A stretch of 64,000 bases of DNA. Source: Hydrolagus affinis (taxonomy: Eukaryota). Shown here in pieces: positions 3,016 through 62,559 of the stretch. The notes beneath the pieces are model-generated. The model was not told the DNA's origin, ran no database searches, and saw only the letters and a list, made by a program, of their open reading frames with translations. The stretch is taken from positions 1-64,000 of the forward strand of contig JAAILG010000534.1 in the NCBI GenBank assembly GCA_012026655.1, in the 5' to 3' direction. Within the stretch, counting starts at the first letter, position 1, and each line of letters opens with the position of its first letter. The translations under genes and the position numbers were made by a program.

Positions 3016-3050
3016 TTGCGACATTGTGACAAGTCCTTAGCTCCTCATCA

Positions 3051-3478
3051 CCCAGAGGATTCAATTAAAAATCCTGGTCCTCACCTTTAAAGCCCTCCAT
3101 GGCCTTGCCCCACCCCATCTCTGAGACCTCCTAACCTGTCCCTTCCAAACTGTCTGCTCCTTCCACTCAGTAGATTCTGGCCTGCTCCATGTCCCCCGAC
3201 CTATCCGCCCCACCATAGGTGGGCGAGTTTTCAGCCACTCAGCCCCCAACCTTTGGAATTCCATCCTGCAATCCCCCTGCCTCGCCTTCTTAGCTTCCTT
3301 CAAGTCCTGTCTCAAGACCCTCTTCTTTGACCGTGCCATTGGTCACCCCCACTTTCCCTCCCTTCTCTCTACCCTCTTGGATCCCGACCCCAGCTCGGAT
3401 TCGAAACACTGACTGTCCAGCGCCTTGGGACGTTCTCCCAGCGTGAGAAATGTAATGTTGTTGTTGTTGTTGATGTTG
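3051..3478 (+). mobile_element. L2 LINE 3' fragment with (GTT)n tail
   Basis: Reads KILVLTFKALHGLAP...FSHSAPNLWNS...LKTLFFD. Tail is gcgccttgggacgttctcccagcgtga followed by gtt repeats. Homologous to 1-518. Confidence 0.9.
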
Positions 3479-5902: not shown

Positions 5903-6230
5903 GTCCACTCACTCCCTGGCACCTTGCTAGCTCTCTGACCTCCTCGCTCCCCAATCCACCGCCCGGCTCCTCCGCTCGACTGGCACCAATCCCTCGCAAC
6001 TTGGATGTCACGCTTTTAGTCCCAAACTCTGGAATGCTCTCCCTCAAACCCTCCGGCTTTCCCCCTCTCTCCCCCTTTTCAAGTCTCACCTGAAAACCTT
6101 CCTCTTCAACCTGGCTTATGACCAACCTCCCCCCAACAGCCCTCGCCTCCCACCCGTGGCTCTGAGTCCGGCTCTGGCACTGTTAACTGCTCTGAGATGC
6201 TACTGTATCAGTGCATGCTGTTGTTGTTTA
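5903..6230 (+). mobile_element. Older L2 LINE 3' fragment
   Basis: cccaaactctggaatgctctccctc...ttcaagtctcacctgaaaaccttcctcttc (PKLWNALP...FKSHLKTFLF). Paralogous to 52993-53245. Confidence 0.8.
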
Positions 6231-7699: not shown

Positions 7700-8025
7700 C
7701 TTTTTAGCTGAACAGTCAGGGGTCAGGACCCAAGCATATTGGGCAGGGTTAGGATGAGGGAGGGTGCAGAGGTGGGGGGCGGCTGAAGGCACGGTTGAAA
7801 AGGATGGCCTTGAAGAAGAAGGCATGGGAGGAAGCAACGCAAAGGGATTGTAGGATGGAGTTTCAAAGAGTGAGGGAAGAGTGACCGAAAACCAGGCCGA
7901 TGGTAGGGCAGGTTGGGCGGGAGATATGGAGCAGGCTGGAGCCTGCTGAACAGAGGGAGAGGACAGGTTGATAGGGGTCAGCAGTTCAGAGAGGTCTTGT
8001 AGGAAACAGTGCAATAGTCCTGAGG
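7700..8025 (-). mobile_element. Degraded L2 LINE 3' fragment
   Basis: Colinear with 1-330 (gctgaacagtcagg, gcctgctgaac, ggatggagtt). Confidence 0.75.
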
Positions 8026-12377: not shown

Positions 12378-12510
12378 AGTAGTGCCACTTAGTTGGAGGG
12401 ACACATTTATATGAATACACAAACCCAAATACAGTATTCAGATGTTTTGTAACTGGAGCACTGCCAATGTGTAGATGCACAGTAAGAGAATTTAGCCTAT
12501 AATAATACAG

Positions 12511-12802
12511 TAATAATCCTTGCATTTGATATAGTGCTTTTCATATCTTATCGATGTCTCAAAGCGTTTCACAGAATATACCGTAAAGTGAATTGACTGA
12601 ATATATTTGGGCGAAATGCGGCTGCCAATTGCCCACAGCAGTGACCCACAAACAGTCATGGATTGAAAATGACCAATTTTTATTATTGTGTTTTTTTTTG
12701 GATGGATTATTATTAGGCGTGTGGAGTAAGGTTTTGCCCTGACCTGCCTGGATTCGAACACAGGTCTCACGCTTGTAAGGCGAGTGCTCTAAACAGGAGC
12801 TC
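12511..12802 (-). mobile_element. Near full-length tRNA-derived SINE
   Basis: Reverse complement is colinear with 32170-32491. Confidence 0.9.
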
Positions 12803-12828: not shown

Positions 12829-13040
12829 CATAGAATCATAGAATTATTCAGCACAGAAGAAGCCATTCAGCCCATTGTGTCTGTACTGGCTCTTTGAAAA
12901 GAGCTGTCTAAATCAATCCCACTCCCCCGCGCTCTCCCTATCGCCCTGCAAACGTGTCTTCCCCAAATAGTTATCTACTTATCTCTTAAAAGTTGTTATT
13001 GAATCAGCTTGTAGCAACCTTTTGGGCACTGCTTTCCAGA
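12829..13040 (-). mobile_element. CR1 LINE 3' end
   Basis: Terminal catagaat repeats and gccattcagccc 3' UTR. Homologous to 33955-34173 and 51961-52122. Confidence 0.85.
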
Positions 13041-15559: not shown

Positions 15560-15875
15560 ATACAACACCAACAACATAATTACATATGTTTCGTGCATTT
15601 TCACATCGGGAGGACACGACAAGGCACTGGACAATCAGTGTTTCAGACCCGAGCTGGGATCGGGGAAGGTGCAGGGAAGGAAGGGGAAGGGGGGGGTGAC
15701 CGATGGTACAGTCGAAGAGGAGGGTCTTGAGGCAGGACTTGAAGGAGGCTAGGGAGGGGGTCGAGGCAGAGGGATTGCAGAATGGAATTCTAGAGGTTAG
15801 GGGCAGAGTGGCTGAAGGCTAACCCACTGATGGTGGGGCAGGTGGGTCAGGGGACATGCAGCAGGCCGGACATAG
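15560..15875 (-). mobile_element. L2 LINE 3' fragment
   Basis: Reverse complement is homologous to 3170-3478. Confidence 0.85.
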
Positions 15876-23811: not shown

Positions 23812-23883
23812 ATTTCATTAATATAATGCTGACTATTCCCACCTGTCACTAGGGAGACCAGGGTTCAATTCCCCAATGGAGAG
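23812..23883 (+). pseudogene. Degraded tRNA-Asp(GTC) copy acting as a SINE head
   Basis: Gap-free match of about 55/72 nt to vertebrate tRNA-Asp(GTC) as I recall it. cctgtcac anticodon loop and gggagacc.gggttc.attcccc are retained; most mismatches are transitions. Confidence 0.8.
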
Positions 23884-24403
23884 AGATGGGAACCTTGGGC
23901 AAGTTTCCTTACTCCACATGCCTAATAGTAATCTGTCCAAAAAAACACACAATAATAAATATTGGTCATTTTCAATCCACGACTGTTTGTGGGACACTGC
24001 TGTGCGCAATTGGCTGCCGCATTCCGTCCACAAATATACAGTCAATTCACTTTACAGTATAAACAAAACATAAAATACCACAGATGCTGGGAATCTGAAA
24101 CAAAAACAAAAGTTGCTGGGGAAACTCAGTAGGTCAGGCAGCATCCATGGAGAAAGGAAAAAAAGTCAACGTTTCAGGTCTACAATCCTTCGTCAGAACG
24201 GAGACCGTTCTGACGAACAATTGTAGACCCGAAATGTTGTCTCTTTTTCCTTTCTCCATAGATGCTGCCTGACCCGCTGAGTTTCCCCAGCAACTTTTGC
24301 TTTTGTTTCACTTTATAGTATATTTTGTGAAGCGCTTTTAGACGTCGATAAGATGTGAACAGCCCTATATCAAATGCAAGGATTACTATTAATATTATTA
24401 TTT
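23884..24403 (+). mobile_element. SINE body and tail interrupted by a hairpin cassette
   Basis: aaccttgggcaagtttccttactcc...cactttacagtat [insert] cactttatagtatattttgtgaagcgc...caaatgcaaggatta. Confidence 0.9.
24061..24308. mobile_element. Palindromic Penelope-like (inverted pseudo-LTR) cassette with hammerhead-like motifs
   Basis: ~106-bp inverted arms (24096-24201 and 24205-24310) around a 3-nt loop, with a flanking ~15-bp duplication. CTGACGA...GAAA is present on both strands. Confidence 0.7.
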
Positions 24404-26593
24404 TCCGTTGTTGCGTTATCTCGATAGTAATTCACTCACATTTGGCGTTGCCCAGCTACAGTGTGCCTCAGCGTCAAAGTCCAGAACTGTGTAACCCGCA
24501 CTGCGTTAAAGCAAACACATTCGTTTCTGGTGTTTTCACCGAGGATCAACACTTGCGCTCATGTATTGTGAGCTTGTTCAGTTGTTTGCCTTGTGAGCAG
24601 CTGATCCTTGAGAACAGAACAAACTGTGCTTGTCAAGCTTTCCAAACAGTACAAGAAATGTAGAATCAGCCCACATTTCCTGAACTCTTAGCTCTCGCAT
24701 GTATGGGATGGTGAGGAGGGAAAAACATTTCTTCCCATGGTTGCCATTAGGTCTGGTTTGGGAAGTGTTGAGTGGAGATCCATTTCGCACAGAGGATCTA
24801 TGAAGGTTACATGTGCTACTATGTAAAGATTACCCTTCTTTGAACAAACTGGTAAGCAAAGGACTGTGTTATGAAACACAACCAGGTAAACCTACTTCTG
24901 ATCCCTGTTTACGGTATGGTGGAGATTAGTTTGATAAAGATGAGTCTGTTTCTATTATTTCCTGGAGCAGAAGTAGAACCTTGTTCGATGCGTTCGATGC
25001 ATAAAGAAAACTCAATGTTAAATGGAGTGCACCCAAGCCAAACTGAGCATCTATAGACTTACTTTCAATTGTAATTCATGCGCTGGGTAGAGAACATGTA
25101 CATATAGATATACACAAATGTGTATACAAGCAGCTCTTCATTAAAATGATAGAGAGAAATATACACTTAAGTAATGATAATGCCAGTTTGGGAAGACATC
25201 AAGCTGCAATTCTTGAGACCTGTTGCCTGGTCGATTAAGCAAGTGGCACACAGATCCATCTTAACATCAGCACACTCCATTATTGTCCTCTGAAGGATCT
25301 TGAGCTGAGTGGAGTCCACTTATTAAAATGAAGCACAGCTTGCACGAGAATCATTGTACATGCTGGCATGCTACATATGGTTTTAAATGACACAGGAACT
25401 CTGCCTTTGGTGTGCCAAGATGAAGTGCAACAGAAAAGCTGGCTGTAAAATGGAGACTAGCTGAAGGCACAAAAGGCTACATGGCAATTAAACTGACAAT
25501 AGATCACTGAAAAAGCAGACTTCTCTCTTTGCTGCATACGGGGAGATGTAGCGAGTGACCGTAGCTAGGGCTCAGCTTCTGAACAGTACAGTTCACCCCA
25601 CAAGGATATGAGCAGCAAAGCCCATGGAATGAGGCTGAATAGCTTGACTCAAGCAGACAATCGCAGTGGAGCCCAAAGTATATAATCCCAGGCTTGACCC
25701 AGAGACTGTTCTGGATTGTGTCAAATGTAATTTGACTTAATGCACAAAGCGTAGCTCTGAGAAATCTGTCTCACAAAATCATTGGTTGTGAAATTTGTGA
25801 CTTTTTAAAAAAAAACAGGTTCCACGTTTTAATTTGACATTGCAATTTTCACTTCATTGTTTTATTCATGCCACGAATGCTTATCTGTTGTGTTTTTTTT
25901 GACGAATATATCTCAGTGTTGTATAGCATTGGAGCCAGACACCAAAACCATTCCCATCCCACAACAGCCAAACCAGACAGCCAACCAGACAGACAGACAG
26001 CCCCCACACATCCCTGTTCAACACAGAGAAAACCAGACAGTTGCAAATCTGCCAATAGTGGAGATGCCAAGAGTGGTTTATCTTTCCACTATTTCCCTTT
26101 TTAATGTCTGCTATAAATATGTTGTGTTTATTTCGAAGCCCTTCTCTGTCCTAAGATTGATCGAATTAGATTTGGGAATGCGCGGAGAGAATGTCACAAA
26201 TAAAACACCATTAGCCTTGGGCTACAAATGTTGGATTTCAGAGGATATTTCAATCTCAGCAGGATCAGCTCATTAAGATTTCTGCTGATTCACAGCAGTT
26301 TGAAAATATCATTGAGAATCTTTGCAACATGAAGTATTTAAATGCAAAGGGTTGATGCTGTTTGACAGCGTGGTGAGGAGAATGTTATTTTTTTTAAACG
26401 CTCCGAATAAATTAATATTGAATTAACAGCGCTTCGGTAAATTTTCTTCTAAACAAGGTAATTGTTACTGTTTTTTTTAAAAATCCAACTGTCTCAAACA
26501 TAAATATATTTCTCACTTGCAATGTCGGGTGTCTGATGAGCATATTTATCTCATTCATGTAGAAACTGATAACACTGGTCTATCTGTCAATTA

Positions 26594-26750
26594 AATAATC
26601 CTTGCATTTGATTTAGCACCTTTTCAAGTCAAAGCACTTCCCAGAGGTTTTTTTTAATGAAGTGTAATGATTGTGTATTTGTAGTCAAACTCAACAGCCA
26701 ATTTTCACACATCAATTGTCACACAAAACAGCCAGGAAATTATTTGCCAA
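26594..26750 (-). mobile_element. Degraded SINE 3' fragment
   Basis: aataatccttgcatttga...caaagcacttc...cagccaatt. Confidence 0.65.
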
Positions 26751-32169: not shown

Positions 32170-32491
32170 GTGGAGTCCTGTAGCTCAGTGGTCAGAGCAG
32201 TCGCCTTACAAGCGTGAGACCTGTGTTCGAATCCTGACAGGTCAGGGCGAAACTTTGGGCAAGTTTTCTTACTCCACACACCTAATAATAATCCGTCCAA
32301 AAAAAAACAATAATAAAATTGGTTATTTCAATCCATGACTGTTTGTGGGACACTGCTGTGGGCAATTGGCTCCTGTGTTTTGCCCACAAATACACAGTCA
32401 ATTCACTTTGCAGTATATTCTGTGAAGCGCTTTGAGACGTCGATAAGATGTGAAAAGTGCTACATCAAAATGCAAGGATTATTCTTATTAT
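32170..32491 (+). mobile_element. Full-length tRNA-derived SINE
   Basis: Head, A and B boxes, body and tail are all present. Confidence 0.92.
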
Positions 32492-32599
32492 AGATACAGA
32501 TATCCATGAGGACTTGATTTAGGTATTCAGGTTAGCATTATCTAGCTCACATGGATTGCCATTGCAATTCAGAAAAGAAGAAAGTGAATCAACATCAAT

Positions 32600-33954: not shown

Positions 33955-34173
33955 TAATTCTACTCTAAGTGATTTGCCTGAAAAGGTGGAGGAGGCAGAT
34001 TCCATAACAGCTTTTAAAAGGGAACTGGGTCTTTATTTAGGAAGAGCAGGTCTGTTAGGTTATGGGGAGAAAGCTGGGCAGTGGGATTGAGTTGCTCTGT
34101 TCAAAGAGTCGGCACAGACTAGATGGGCCGAATGGCCTCCTTTTGTGCCGTATAATTCTGTGATTCTATGATT
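33955..34173 (+). mobile_element. CR1 LINE 3' end
   Basis: Reads LPEKVEEADSITAFKRELG, then gatgggccgaatggcctcct and terminal attctgtg/attctatg repeats. Confidence 0.9.
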
Positions 34174-36865: not shown

Positions 36866-37574
36866 ATAAACAGCATATTGCATTCACTTTGTGAAATTAT
36901 GGGTGATAAATCAAAAGCAAGAATTTTTTTTAACATCATGATGACATAAATCAGACAGGACAGAAAAAGAAGAGCATGTGGGCATAATTTGGATGCCAAT
37001 ACAACAGTTTTCTGACTTGTGGCAAGAGGCAGGAAAGCATTGGGCTGTATCTTTTAATGGTAACAAATGGCTGCACCTGTAGCAAAGGAACATAATTAAA
37101 AAAAAAATTATACATCAACACAAAGTGTATGTGCATGAAAATAACTTCTTCGAAGTGTCTCTATTTTGATTGAATTCATAAAGCAGTGCTTACAGGAAAA
37201 AAGGTTGTCAAGTTCTGTGCACTGCTGGTCAATTTCTGACCTTTAATTGCAATAATGTGTAGCCCTTCCCATCTGATTACATGATGTCCTACATTCTTCC
37301 AACTTTCGAATCTATCGACCCAACCTTTAATTACGAAAAGTACAATCCATTTTGAATTAAACAATACGCAATCTTGTTTCTTCAAATGTGTGCTGCACTA
37401 TTCTTCCCTTCTAATTACAAACTATGGAATGTTGGGACTGGAGACATTTACAGCTACATAGATTATGCAATTAATCAATTTCTATTCCTGTCAGAGGCTC
37501 GGTTTCTCTTTGCAAATGCTGAGTACAGAGATTTCCATTTTCATATCTGTTCTGTTTATAAAGAGTGCATGAAA

Positions 37575-37750
37575 TAATAATAAGAATAATAACCTTTGCA
37601 TTTGATATAGTGCCTTTTCACGTCATCTAGACGTCTCAAAGCGCTTCAAAGAATTGACTGTATATCACTGTAGGCGAAACATGGCAGCCAATCGCGCACA
37701 GCAGTGTCCCACAAACAGTCATGGATTGAAATGACCAATTTTATTATTGA
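37575..37750 (-). mobile_element. SINE 3' half
   Basis: ctttgcatttgatatag...gacgtctcaaagcgcttc...cagtgtcccacaaacagtc. Confidence 0.88.
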
Positions 37751-41175: not shown

Positions 41176-41790
41176 TTTTTTGGAGGGTCAGCCAAGTGTC
41201 TGACACAATAAGAAAACCCTTCGCCATGTTTAAGAATATCCAAACCAAACCGAGAATTCCATGCATTCTAACCACGCATGGAAATTCCAGAGAATGGAGA
41301 TTTTTGGAATGGAATGCGTGGGAGTATTGTCGCCATCTACTTATCCGCATCTCGGGGACACTTCCCTTCCCATTGAGCTATGGATCCACCAGTTGGAGTT
41401 TCGGAGTTTAAGCCACAGCTCCTTGCCACACCGCAGTCCAATCAAGGTGGATTCCGGAAGCTGAAACTTGTGTCACGAATCCGGACTCCAGGTAATGTCT
41501 TCCAGCACCTGGAAGCCCAAGCCTCCGAGTTTTTCCATCATCTATCTGGCATCTGTCTTCAGTGTGTTGGGAGGACCTTTACAGGACAGCTTGTGATGTA
41601 GCAGCCACCTTGATGTTCTCTAGGTCCAGATTCAATGCTGCGTACCAACCTTACTCAGCACCAGTTGCTTAAACCAGGTCCTCATCTGAGGGGCCTTGGC
41701 AAATTGACGGGCCCGCTGTGAAGCCACCTCCAGTTTGCTTAGCGACAGGTCAGAGTAGGTTGGAGCCCTCCCTCCTTGCAATCGTTCCCC
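41176..41790 (-). repeat. Unclassified dispersed repeat, possibly an A-tailed LINE 3' end
   Basis: 41187-41350 aligns with the reverse complement of 56720-56887. GC-richer than its flanks. Confidence 0.55.
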
Positions 41791-49300: not shown

Positions 49301-49487
49301 ATACGGTCACTCCATTTCACAGCAAAAAACAACAACAACAAGCATTTATTTAGCGCTTTCTACTCCAGGCAACGTCTCAGTGCACTTAAAACCTGAAACA
49401 CTATATTTTGAACCCTGCGAAGCATGTGAAGTGTTTTGAGACGTTGTTTTGATGCGATAAGGTGCTAAATCACATCACGCATTTTTC

Positions 49488-49870
49488 AACACCAACAACT
49501 TCGATTTATATAGCGCCCTCCACGCCGGACGGCGTCTCAGAGCACTTCACATCAACGGATCCTGGGACTGAGCCAGGGGCAGGGATAGAAAGGTCGAAGA
49601 GAAAGGTCTTTAGCTGGGACCTGAAACTGGAAAGAGAGGGGGCGAGGCGAAGGGAGTGAGGAAGGGAGTTCCAGAGCATCGGGGCGTAGTGGCTGAAGGC
49701 ACGGCCGCCGAGGGTGGAGCAGAGGATTCGGGGGGATACAGAGGAGGCCAGACCCAGGGGAGCAAAGGCAACGGGAGCTGGTTTGGGGAGAGAGAAGGTC
49801 GGAGAGATAGCGGGGTGCAGAGGAGTGGAGGGATTTGAAAACAAGGGTGAGGACCTTGAAATCGAGTGGT
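49488..49870 (-). mobile_element. L2 LINE 3' fragment, second subfamily
   Basis: ORF reads STLGGRAFSHYAPMLWNSLP...SFRSQLKTFLFD. Close paralog at 50921-51455. Confidence 0.9.
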
Positions 49871-50920: not shown

Positions 50921-51455
50921 CAACAACAACAACAACAACAACAACAACAACTCCGATTTATATAGCGCACTCCACGCTGGACGGCGTCTAAGATCGCTTC
51001 ATAATAACGGATCCCGGGACCGAGCCAGGGGCAGGGGTAGAAAGGTGACCAAAAGCACGGTCGAAGAGAAAGGTCTTTAGCTGTGACCTGAAACTGGGAA
51101 GAGAGGGGGTGAGGCGAAGGGAGTGAGGAAGGGAGTTCCAGAGCCTTGCGGCATAGTGGCTGAAGGCACGGCCGCCGAGGTTGGAACGAAGGATTCGGGG
51201 ACATGGAGGAGGCCAGACCCAGTGGAGCAAAGGCAATGGGTGCTGGTTTGGGGAGAGAGGAGATCAGAGAGGTAGGCGGGTGCAGAGGAGTGGAGGGATT
51301 TCAAAACAGAGTGAGGATCTTGAATTCGATCCTCTCAGGGACACAGAGCCAGGGAAGTCTGGCAAGGACTGGGGTAATGGGGGAGCGAAGCTTGGTGCGG
51401 GTGAGTATGTGGGCGGCAGAGTTTTGAATTAGCTGGATTCTCCCTTCCCCCGTCT
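50921..51455 (-). mobile_element. L2 LINE 3' fragment, second subfamily, with (GTT)n tail
   Basis: KSLHSSAPAYLSDLL and LGGRAFSHYAARLWNSLP...LKTFLFD motifs; (caa)n at 50921-50950. Confidence 0.92.
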
Positions 51456-51960: not shown

Positions 51961-52122
51961 CATAGATTCATAGATTCATAGAATTTTACGGCACAAAAGG
52001 AGGCCATTCGGCCCATCTAGTCTGTGCCGGCTCTTTGAAAAGAGCGATTCAATCCCACTGCCCTGCCCGCTCCCCATAGCCTAATAGACCTGTTCTCCCT
52101 AAATAAAGATCTAATTCCCTTT
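51961..52122 (-). mobile_element. CR1 3' end nested in a SINE tail (SINE parts ~51925-51960 and 52123-52145)
   Basis: catagatt repeats followed by ggcacaaaaggaggccattcggcccatctagtctgtgcc. Near-identical to the reverse complement of 34110-34150. Confidence 0.88.
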
Positions 52123-52364
52123 CAAGATGTCCCGAACTGCTTCTAATGGAGTGAAGAATATATTAGGCTTGATTATATACTTGTAAAGGATGAGAACCAA
52201 CACTGTTCCCTTGTTGATATGCTGTATCAAATACAAATGTTGTCTCAAAAACAGTGTTATGATATTATTATTATTGGTCAAGACATTGTGAGAAACTCCT
52301 GTTTTGAATAGGGCTGTGAGATCTTTAATATCCACCGTAATAATATTAATAATACTAATAATAA

Positions 52365-52470: not shown

Positions 52471-52992
52471 GTCACGATGAGTGTCCCATCTGAAGGAAAG
52501 CATCTGCAATAATGTTCCCTTTTAACTCGGAGGAAAGATTTTTTGCGGCTACTTAAATGAATAATTCCCCGTTCTAGGACTTAACAACTTGCATTGTTGT
52601 TCTGCGTTGAATCAACATCAATGACTGTTCTGTAACAGTCTTGTTACTTAACGTTTTATTGAAGTTTGCCAGCTAAATTAACCATATTAAGAACCACCAT
52701 GGATAGAATCAAAAAAGTCATTAATAATACATTCTAATTTTTTTTTATCTTGACTTTAAATTGCTGTAACAATGAGAGAGAATACAATATTCATTTGTGT
52801 GCCATAAATATTTGATTGAAAAAACTATATTTGCTGAAATTTTTCCTCCAAGTCTCTTTTTCTTGTATTTTATTCCCCGATGATTATTCAATTTGGAAGA
52901 TCCAAATAAAGATTAATTTAAAAATTGTCAATTTAACTACAAAAACATCCTAATTGGAGTGTGTTCTAGTCGTGCAGTTAAGGAGTGACTAA

Positions 52993-53245
52993 TCCCTTCC
53001 GCTCTCTGGCACTTCCCTACCTCTCTGACCTCCTCAATCCCCAATCCACCATCTAACTCCTCCACTCGACTGGCACCGGCTTCTTGCTCGTCCCTCGCAC
53101 TCTTTGCCCCACAATTGAAGCCCGCACTTTCAGCCCATACCCCCCAAAACTCTGGAAAACTCTCCCTCAATCCCTTTGCCTTGACCCCTCTCTCCCCGTT
53201 TTCAAGTCTGGCCTGAAAACCTTCCTCTACGACCATGCTTATAAG
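52993..53245 (+). mobile_element. L2 LINE 3' fragment
   Basis: ORF reads RTFSPYPPKLWKTLP...FKSGLKTFLYD. Confidence 0.85.
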
Positions 53246-56689: not shown

Positions 56690-56898
56690 CTGAAACCCAT
56701 CATTCACTGAGTGAGGGCTCAAATCCGGAATAAGTAAGCAGAATGAGTTCCTCCAGGGATGGAGTGTACGTTCCATTCCATCAGGTGAATCTCCTTGTAT
56801 AGGTGGGATGCTTGGAATTCTCAGTTTAGTTTGGATGCTCTTCATCGTGTTGATGGGTTTCCCCGTGTATCAGACATCTGGCTGACCACAAAAAAAAA
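56690..56898 (+). repeat. Second copy of the unclassified repeat, ending in an A-run
   Basis: Reverse complement aligns with 41187-41350; ends ggctgaccacaaaaaaaaa. Confidence 0.55.
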
Positions 56899-61052: not shown

Positions 61053-62010
61053 AAAGTCACTTACAATCGATCTTACTGTTAGATACAAGGCCACTACAAC
61101 TAAATGATCTGCTGGTCAGTCCCATTGTTTAAGACTTTGGTCAGTCCTATTTACTGAACCACTGCACACTTCTACTACCCAAGTCAAAGAAATAACAAAC
61201 ATAGCCACTAATTTTGACTAATGACTGATCTGTTAAACCAATTATCAAATGAGTCAGTGGGCACTGTGAGATGCCCCAGCTACCCAAAATACTGCTGAGC
61301 AAAAGGTCAGCACAATAATAATAATAATTAATAACTATTAAACTGATCTGAGATAATGGTTCCCTCTTACCAACTGAGCTGACTGATATTTCAGCTGTAT
61401 GACACAACCACCCATTGAGTCACCAAATGATACCAATCGCTAAACTATTTAACACTGCTACCATCTGAATCAAAGGTAGACTATTATTAGGTCAATGCAC
61501 TACATTCAATCTGGAAAAGTGCTTTTCAGACTTCTCCTGATGTGAATGTTGCTATATCAAATGCAAGGATTATTTTTATTATTTATTAGAACCTCTATCC
61601 AGATCTTGCAAAACATTTTAGAGAGTTAGCATCAAATGCCAAGTGATATAGAGAATAAACAATAAAGATTGACTTGTGAATCTATAACATCAATCAATCA
61701 TAAGCTTTGTAAACCACAAGAGGAAAAAATCTTGATTCAATTATTCCCCTTGCACCTCACTTTTATCTGATATGTATTGATTGAGACTGACTTAGTTAAA
61801 TCAGACATACAGAGGACTGCCGATGGCAAGGATTAATGCAGTGAGGACAGGAATTGCAAAGGCTGAGCCAGCGAGGGGTAACAGACAAATGAGGACTGAT
61901 GCTGAGTACGTGGTGTAGTGGGAACAGTTATAGCAAGGAGCTTATTTATTGTTTACTTTATTTTCCTCACTCATTATTTTTGTCATGATCCTTTCATGCC
62001 ACACATTACA

Positions 62011-62559
62011 GTGGAGTCCTGTAGCTCAGTGGTTAGAGCCTTACAAGCGCGAGACATGTGTTCAAATCCAGGCAGATCAGGGCGAAACCTTGGGCAACTT
62101 CCCTTACTCCACATGCCTAATAATAATCCCTCCAAAAAAAAAAGCAATGATAAATTGGTCATTGAAATCCGTGTCTGTTTGTGGGGCACTGCTGTGTGCA
62201 ATTGGCTGCCACGTTTCGCCCACAAATATACAGTCAACTCACTTTATAGTATACAAAAACAAAAGTTGCTGGGGAAACTCAGCAGGTCAAACAGCATCCA
62301 CGGAGAAAGGAAAAAGAGTCAACGTTTCGGGACGAAGGGTTGTAGACCCGAAACGTTGACTCTTTTTCCTTTCTCCACGGATGCTGTTTGACCTACTGAG
62401 TTTCCCCAGCAACTTTTCCTTTTGTTTCAGATTCCCAGCATCTGTCATATTTTGTGTTTTGTTTCACTTTATAGTATATTCTGTGAAGCGCTTTGAGACA
62501 TCTAGAAGATGTGAAAAGCACGTTATCAAAATACAAGGATTATTATATTATTATTATTA
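62011..62559 (+). mobile_element. Full-length tRNA-derived SINE interrupted by a hairpin cassette
   Basis: Standard head and body, insert at cactttatagtat, then the tail. Confidence 0.92.
62253..62464. mobile_element. Second palindromic Penelope-like cassette
   Basis: Inverted arms homologous to 24061-24308, with the apex partly deleted. tcactttatagtata is duplicated on both sides. Confidence 0.7.

Follow-up and report, generated by a model that had tools for sequence, protein, structure and literature searches.

Two SINE copies in the 64,000-nucleotide stretch of Hydrolagus affinis DNA analysed here (contig JAAILG010000534.1; the whole stretch is called the window below) are interrupted by a palindromic cassette at one and the same coordinate, which raises the question of whether a mobile element has entered a preferred site twice or whether a single interrupted SINE has been copied. 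The window is rich in repeats (38–40 % GC), and SINE copies cover about 8 % of it. Judged from their sequence, the cassettes are with high confidence the ends of a ribozyme-bearing Penelope-like element (PLE), and they have quite probably been inserted independently at a preferred site, although two copies are no proof.

The first-pass annotation had described both SINEs as broken at the same word, with some 15 bp duplicated around a fold-back, and this description holds: the cassettes near 24 kb (copy 1) and near 62 kb (copy 2) sit at the same SINE coordinate, and each is built of head-to-head inverted repeats within a duplication of 13–16 bp. The arms of copy 1 (24096–24201 and 24205–24310) are 106 nt long, 91 % complementary, and separated by a 3-nt loop; those of copy 2 (62253–62331 and 62347–62425) measure 79 nt, are 94 % complementary, and stand 15 nt apart. 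Hairpin folding yielded z-scores of −23.8 for copy 1 and −18.0 for copy 2 (against 200 shuffles each), and the fold-back centres of the two copies differ. The direct repeat spans 16 nt in copy 1 (24046–24061 and 24307–24322, with one C/T mismatch) and 15 identical nucleotides in copy 2 (62239–62253 and 62464–62478). A 13-bp core word is found at all four junctions, and the length of the duplication is given as a range because 1–4 nt of microhomology adjoin this core. The additional segment of about 36 bp, reported on the left of one copy and on the right of the other, measures 37 nt, of which 34 are identical between the copies. The parts of both cassettes, including the best-kept ribozyme motif discussed below, are as follows:

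24048–24060, plus strand: left target word of copy 1, 13-bp core with the consensus C (up to 24046–24061 with microhomology)
24062–24098, minus strand: PLE 'tail' of copy 1, 37 nt, the distal 3' end
24096–24201, minus strand: left arm of copy 1, a 5'-truncated pLTR fragment with its 3' end outward
24165–24199, minus strand: best-kept minimal hammerhead, with a 3-bp helix I, CUGACGA core, extra A, decayed helix II, and GAAAC-GUU
24205–24310, plus strand: right arm of copy 1, which has no tail and holds the decayed remains of a hammerhead core (24210–24238)
24309–24321, plus strand: right target word of copy 1, T variant
62240–62252, plus strand: left target word of copy 2, T variant
62253–62331, minus strand: left arm of copy 2, tail-less, its 5' end more truncated and beginning in the 3' strand of helix II
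62332–62427, plus strand: right arm of copy 2, beginning inside the hammerhead core, with the first three core bases absent
62427–62463, plus strand: PLE 'tail' of copy 2, 37 nt
62465–62477, plus strand: right target word of copy 2, T variant

At the centre of copy 1 (24197–24209), both arms end 5 nt upstream of the ribozyme core around the 3-nt loop, an arrangement that resembles a self-primed fold-back at a fixed RNA boundary. The proximal element end (24095–24101 on the minus strand; 62415–62430) falls on a stretch of pyrimidines with CAG after it, reminiscent of a 3' splice site, and a small stem-loop of the tail has its base there; given that PLE pLTRs can hold introns, a connection may be speculated upon.

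Several simpler origins of the pair were rejected. A larger or segmental duplication with homologous flanks, which had been named as one of the findings that would overturn the idea, was not found when about 3 kb on each side of copy 1 was compared with 2.4 kb and 1.4 kb flanking copy 2, because the flank matches were only short (at most 42 nt) and fell in repeat tails. A fold-back artefact of the assembly is ruled out, as the arms differ at 8/80 and 5/79 shared sites. Matches to Rfam miRNA models all lay far below the gathering scores and reflect the long hairpin, which speaks against a miRNA precursor. Neither BLAST nor an nhmmer profile of the four arms revealed a third cassette in the 64 kb, pattern scans of bacterial and archaeal genomes returned no further copy, and word-index searches with spurious translations of the cassettes were likewise without further copies; the two HMMER matches to such translations (34–37 %) are internally repeated, unrelated proteins and were judged to be due to chance.

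The assignment to PLEs is based on the ribozyme and on the overall layout. Read on the T-rich strand from the centre outward, each arm starts with a minimal hammerhead motif. A strict hammerhead descriptor matched once over the two strands of the window, at 24196 (minus strand) in the left arm of copy 1, and not at all in 60 simulated 64-kb sequences. By arm, one of the four shows the strict match, three are decayed or truncated, and none is perfect; the right arm of copy 2 nevertheless retains an intact 4-bp helix II (62337–62349). For metazoan PLE ribozymes, the consensus NNN CUGANGAH G..C GAAAN palindrome NUH has been described, with an extra base, a G10.1–C11.1 pair, and palindromic positions 15.2–16.2 as characteristic traits (PMC4209133), and the cassettes, with a hammerhead motif within the pLTR, fit this published layout: they have the same core, an extra base before helix II, the closing G–C pair, the palindromic CG in place of helix III, and a 3-bp helix I. 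They depart from the hammerheads described there in that no arm has kept the motif free of decay or truncation. Rfam gave no match to a hammerhead family at any threshold tried, and folding of monomers did not yield the hammerhead fold (z of 0.67, 1.35, and −0.43), a result that is neutral with respect to a ribozyme because a motif lacking helix III is expected to give no monomer fold.

The layout of the insert points in the same direction. Head-to-head inverted pLTRs, a target site duplication (TSD), and often a tail of 30–40 bp at one end only are described as hallmarks of PLEs (PMC8557442, PMC3846280). Both cassettes consist of inverted, head-to-head, 5'-truncated pLTR copies, are flanked by a duplication of variable length (13–16 bp in 2/2 copies), and bear the optional tail (37 nt) on one side only, again in 2/2 copies. 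The Penelope origin that had been proposed on structural grounds is thus strengthened by the one-sided tail and by a minimal hammerhead of PLE type, which the proposal had not named. As PLE hammerheads are reported to occur in pairs, 100–700 bp apart and on opposite strands, short inverted PLE remnants were already known (PMC4209133). Tandem arrays or head-to-tail monomers of a hammerhead unit, which define non-LTR retrozymes (bioRxiv 10.64898/2026.07.22.740005), were not observed: the arms stand head to head and there is no tandem copy, so that this class was rejected. No frame for a reverse transcriptase (RT) or a GIY-YIG endonuclease was detected with Pfam among 244 frames of the window (237 of the 404 non-repeat frames, namely those of at least 55 aa, and seven repeat frames), with one weak hit below threshold; since no Pfam domain passed in these frames, a host gene or RT remnant was likewise rejected. 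PLEs are stated to be present in all species studied, including the elephant shark (PMC4350176), and neither the accessible part of the supplementary PLE ribozyme list (PMC4209133) nor a PLE sequence supplement showed a chondrichthyan entry (for general background, see PMC4824008, PMC3747384, PMC9004415).

The closest known systems are the canonical endonuclease-bearing PLEs (Penelope/Poseidon, Neptune), in particular Poseidon of Anolis (PMC11167929) and Pen2/Pen3 of rotifers (PMC3846280). As described there, they share with the cassettes the head-to-head pLTRs, the one-sided tail of 30–40 bp, a target duplication, ATT at the inferred nicks, and a hammerhead in the pLTR about 100–135 nt from the 3' ends. 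Unlike the canonical elements, the cassettes are without an ORF, and both occupy one coordinate, in contrast to the loose preference for AT-rich or microsatellite DNA; their duplication of 13–16 bp also exceeds the 8–10 bp of the rotifer elements (PMC3846280).

The interrupted SINEs belong to a family of about 308 nt with a tRNA head: Rfam tRNA scored above the gathering score in three copies, and ARAGORN produced two hits, calling the anticodons of the SINE heads as Val or Cys. The body presumably resembles CORE/Deu domains and the tail L2 (we assume a likeness to CR1 too). Uninterrupted sites were seen in all 14 of the other aligned copies in the window, in line with the first reading of the sequence, and a short SINE fragment at 36.3 kb is likewise without an insert. 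In one of the uninterrupted copies (37566–37749, minus strand), about 14 nt are missing across the target's left half near 37.6 kb, and this deletion sits between short direct repeats, 16 nt apart, that are present in the SINE consensus around the target. A more diverged SINE 3' module (26594–26727, minus strand; 69 % to the main family), perhaps an older related SINE family, is uninterrupted at the homologous site. The parts of the two hosts are:

23812–23883, plus strand: head of host 1, tRNA-like over its whole length but decayed; its anticodon loop reads GUC (Asp), and it differs from the family head
23891–24047, plus strand: body of host 1 upstream (5') of the target, 80–90 % to other copies by BLAST, and seen in the alignment
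24323–24405, plus strand: 3' end of host 1, with two transversions within 24341–24352
62005–62239, plus strand: head and body of host 2, with an ordinary family head that has a 12-nt deletion
62479–62559, plus strand: 3' end of host 2, with the consensus state at both subfamily marker positions

That the hosts have different heads, as had been proposed, is evident from the alignment and from the Asp-like tRNA head of host 1. This head matches positions 1–71 of the Rfam tRNA model weakly (17.3 bits, E 0.23, under the gathering score) and has no second copy within the window; the segment 23812–23890 would have arisen as a chimera by template switching or else represent a second SINE subfamily. 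Other repeats in the window include a family of 5'-truncated LINE 3' ends, 66–85 % identical (1–487, 3040–3476, 5912–6120, 7707–7993, 15580–15871, 49487–49865, 50936–51435, and 52991–53242), which gave no Pfam match and which we take to be L2-type, as well as a second family of LINE 3' ends, 74–88 % identical (12829–13008, 33995–34171, and 51968–52125), presumably CR1-type, and an inverted pair of 112 nt (41176–41287 and 56787–56895; 73 % identical).

By its size, abundance, and layout, the host SINE appears to fit the elephant shark CmiSINEs, to which it is likened here by description. These (SINE2-1_CM and SINE2-1B_CM) and SacSINE1-CM are likewise about 300 nt long, tRNA-headed, and furnished with a LINE-like tail (PMC5499810), and an abundance of 7–8 % (PMC1845163) compares with about 8 % of the window for the host SINE. 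The anticodons differ (Val or Cys in the window as against Ala for CmiSINEs, PMC5499810). The last 160 bp or so are common to CmiSINEs and SacSINE1-CM, and the cassette target falls within the stretch that would correspond to this module; the accessible text of that paper contains no mention of Penelope (PMC5499810).

Whether the two insertions are independent is best judged from the relationships of the hosts and of the arms. Some 30 nt 3' of its insert, host 1 carries two non-CpG transversions that also occur in the uninterrupted copies near 12.5 kb and 32.2 kb; these tail changes mark a SINE subfamily (12499–12795, 32170–32499, and 24323–24405). A third marker, 5' of the insert, groups host 1 with the same two copies and two more, with an A in the 12.5-kb copy that was read as CpG decay. 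None of these three markers occurs in host 2, and apart from a T in the target word the hosts have no derived non-CpG base in common. By other markers, the 32.2-kb copy groups instead with the one at 36.6 kb, and mosaic SINE copies are therefore suggested. In SINE trees built from 10 of the 17 rows of the alignment (each run omitted six short fragments and one of two host 1 versions), the hosts were joined in 0–6 % of bootstraps; AU tests of host monophyly gave p values of 0.042, 0.052, 0.107, 0.059, and 0.112, with no well-supported SINE branch. Within each copy, both arms carry a copy-specific dinucleotide, and the two arms of copy 1 have in common a further change that weakens helix II. The arm tree favoured a pairing of the arms by copy, at no more than 63/70, with pairing by side or by tail not rejected (p 0.19 and 0.23); single sites argue for each of these latter two pairings. 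The hosts have diverged further (32/227) than the arms have between copies (15/158) or within them (13/159), as would be expected if the insertion came later, a difference that is not significant (p 0.21 and 0.079). Insertion at one coordinate is seen in 2/2 copies; the markers favour independence, but with AU p values of 0.04–0.11 the rejection of host monophyly is borderline.

The main alternative, unlikely in our estimation and still the most serious of those considered, is a composite SINE, in which a double-tailed PLE insertion in a source SINE was amplified by LINE machinery, after which each copy lost one tail and copy 2 also part of the hairpin centre. Such a history would explain the identical coordinate without any targeting, and host monophyly is not firmly rejected by the AU tests. 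It would also account for the T common to the hosts, which the first-pass annotation had counted as a shared non-consensus base: the T is present in three of the four duplicated words (the left repeat of copy 1 has C) and is not exclusive to them, since one of the 14 uninterrupted copies has it too. Set against this one common non-CpG change are the three markers that link host 1 elsewhere. Loss of a tail at a microhomology, likewise suggested earlier, has an exact slippage route at one end, the right end of copy 1 being equal to the right end of copy 2 minus 37 nt between 10-nt direct repeats (47/49 bases); the left, tail-less end of copy 2 falls 2 nt short of the slippage product. The composite history also has in its favour the one site that pairs the two right arms, but it requires an ancestor with two tails, the loss of opposite tails in the two copies, a deletion at the centre, an exchange of heads, a transfer of subfamily markers both 5' and 3' of the insert, and homogenisation of the arms to produce the copy-specific changes, while one-sided tails are an ordinary PLE product. 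Copies of one composite SINE should have the same head and the same insert structure; here heads, centres, and tail sides differ. Counted as events, the composite model needs about six extra ones and the independent model two or three parallel point changes.

The remaining alternatives are considerably less probable. The passage of a single insertion, together with the T, from one SINE copy to another through ectopic gene conversion or recombinational repair, which we consider quite improbable, would reconcile non-sister hosts, the common T, and the single coordinate, but it too requires a double-tailed donor and a separate remodelling of ends and centre, and conversion did not extend to the markers some 30 nt 3' of the site. 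More improbable still is that a PLE with a loose preference for AT-rich DNA or ATT hit one SINE coordinate twice by coincidence. The anole PLE does prefer ATT in AT-rich DNA, SINEs cover a sizeable part (about 8 %) of the window, and the pair was noticed post hoc; if the insertions are independent, coincidence is nevertheless unlikely because the uniform chance of a second insertion within 1 bp of the homologous site is about 7.5e-4, and neither of the two cassettes, the only ones in the 64 kb, lies elsewhere. A fold-back derivative of a DNA transposon (a MITE or a Dada-like targeted transposon), to which we give the least credence, could produce an inverted repeat with a flanking duplication, and targeted DNA transposons are known in fish (PMC8869645). 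The fixed TIRs of a MITE would reach the duplication on both sides; in the cassettes, one end runs 37 nt past, and on different sides in the two copies. The centres differ as well, a PLE-type hammerhead is present, and target-specific Dada elements are reported in no vertebrates outside ray-finned fish in the accessible text of that source (PMC8869645). Between targeting and a composite SINE, the two readings first put forward, the markers, heads, and centres thus lend better support to targeting, short of proof at AU p values of this size.

On balance, a good case can be made for two separate insertions of a hammerhead-bearing PLE into resident, non-sister SINE copies at one preferred site. 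The PLE protein would nick both strands about 13–15 bp apart within a 20-bp pseudo-palindrome (AAT-N2-ACT-N4-AGT-N2-ATT), and the 3'-OH at each nick would prime reverse transcription at one or other of two start sites within the RNA, spaced by 37 nt. Both cDNAs would stop near the ribozyme and then be joined head to head, the target would become duplicated through gap filling, and the tail would come to lie at whichever nick took the distal RT start. The two proposed start sites have one and the same U-rich 8-mer at their end. The nicking and priming steps are borrowed from published PLE biochemistry, the anatomy itself being observed. For the anole PLE, cleavage and extension of both strands have been observed in vitro, with a preference for ATT in AT-rich DNA; reverse transcription starts at two internal RNA sites whose spacing equals the tail, the start site is the same for both strands, the RNA is uncleaved, and a dimer is predicted; the integration steps after priming are called unvalidated (all PMC11167929). 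Because this biochemistry fits, the cassettes can be read as the least that a PLE would leave behind after priming at both nicks, and the template may be taken to be uncleaved RNA, as all four arms run through the ribozyme cut site. This anatomy also corrects the earlier view that the cassettes lie in opposite orientations: a head-to-head insert has the 3' end of the element at both junctions. As both outer ends are element 3' ends and the tail is one-sided, its switch of side reflects neither trimming nor a flip of orientation, and the side most likely records which nick used the distal RT start.

The target word, which lies about 60–75 nt from the SINE 3' end, offers a hint as to what may be recognised. 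The 20-mer centred on the duplication has 7/10 symmetric pairs, a value reached by 7/289 windows of the SINE consensus and by 0.6 % of the 64-kb window; at 14 bp, the symmetry is unremarkable (4/7). With a 14-bp stagger, each inferred nick would fall directly 5' of ATT, and all 10 matches to the spaced motif in the window (with 0–1 mismatch) fall in SINEs. Since window size and motif were picked post hoc, one AAT of the motif is altered in host 2, and the 14-bp value is ordinary, the symmetry is to be treated as a lead, and as such the simplest model would be a dimeric PLE protein that recognises a symmetric DNA word. The element probably reads a DNA word that the SINE provides in bulk.

Xenopus Tx1L is a precedent for an element that targets another transposon. 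For target-specific non-LTR elements (R2, Tx1 group) and Dada transposons, insertion into a multicopy safe haven is likewise described, and other transposable elements count among the known non-LTR targets (PMC8869645); these systems differ from the cassettes in their enzymes and end structures. Among PLEs, target biases described so far comprise microsatellites (Naiad, Chlamys, and Hydra PLEs) and one case of rDNA targeting, namely the endonuclease-less PLE-X families of spike mosses that target 28S rDNA (PMC8557442). These, too, are PLEs with a precise or biased target in multicopy DNA; unlike their rRNA genes or simple repeats, the target of the cassettes lies within another mobile element. 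Insertion of a PLE at a fixed SINE site was not found reported in the literature covered, with Repbase, Dfam, and most subscription papers outside its scope, and nothing on insertion targets was found in published supplementary material on PLEs.

While short inverted PLE remnants with tails were known, a PLE that lands repeatedly at one SINE site would probably be new; on the composite reading, the result would be a modest new SINE subfamily. At about even chances, we propose a vertebrate (probably chimaera) PLE family whose sequence-specific, probably dimeric GIY-YIG endonuclease would cut a pseudo-palindrome in the conserved 3' module of the most abundant SINEs and prime reverse transcription at both nicks, with several hundred thousand SINE copies serving as a safe haven. 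If this is true, with 2 of about 17 local sites filled, insertions at the fixed target could number in the thousands genome-wide; from such a natural collection one could learn how PLE nicks are spaced, how the start site is chosen, and how the tail forms, in what is the least understood among retrotransposon integration mechanisms. As the empty target would be known for each insertion, nick spacing, use of microhomology, and tail side could be fixed. Such an element would further direct attention to a GIY-YIG/RT enzyme that is sequence-specific and able to write on both strands, to a parasite-of-a-parasite relationship between PLE and SINE, and to a source of long hairpin RNA within SINE transcripts.
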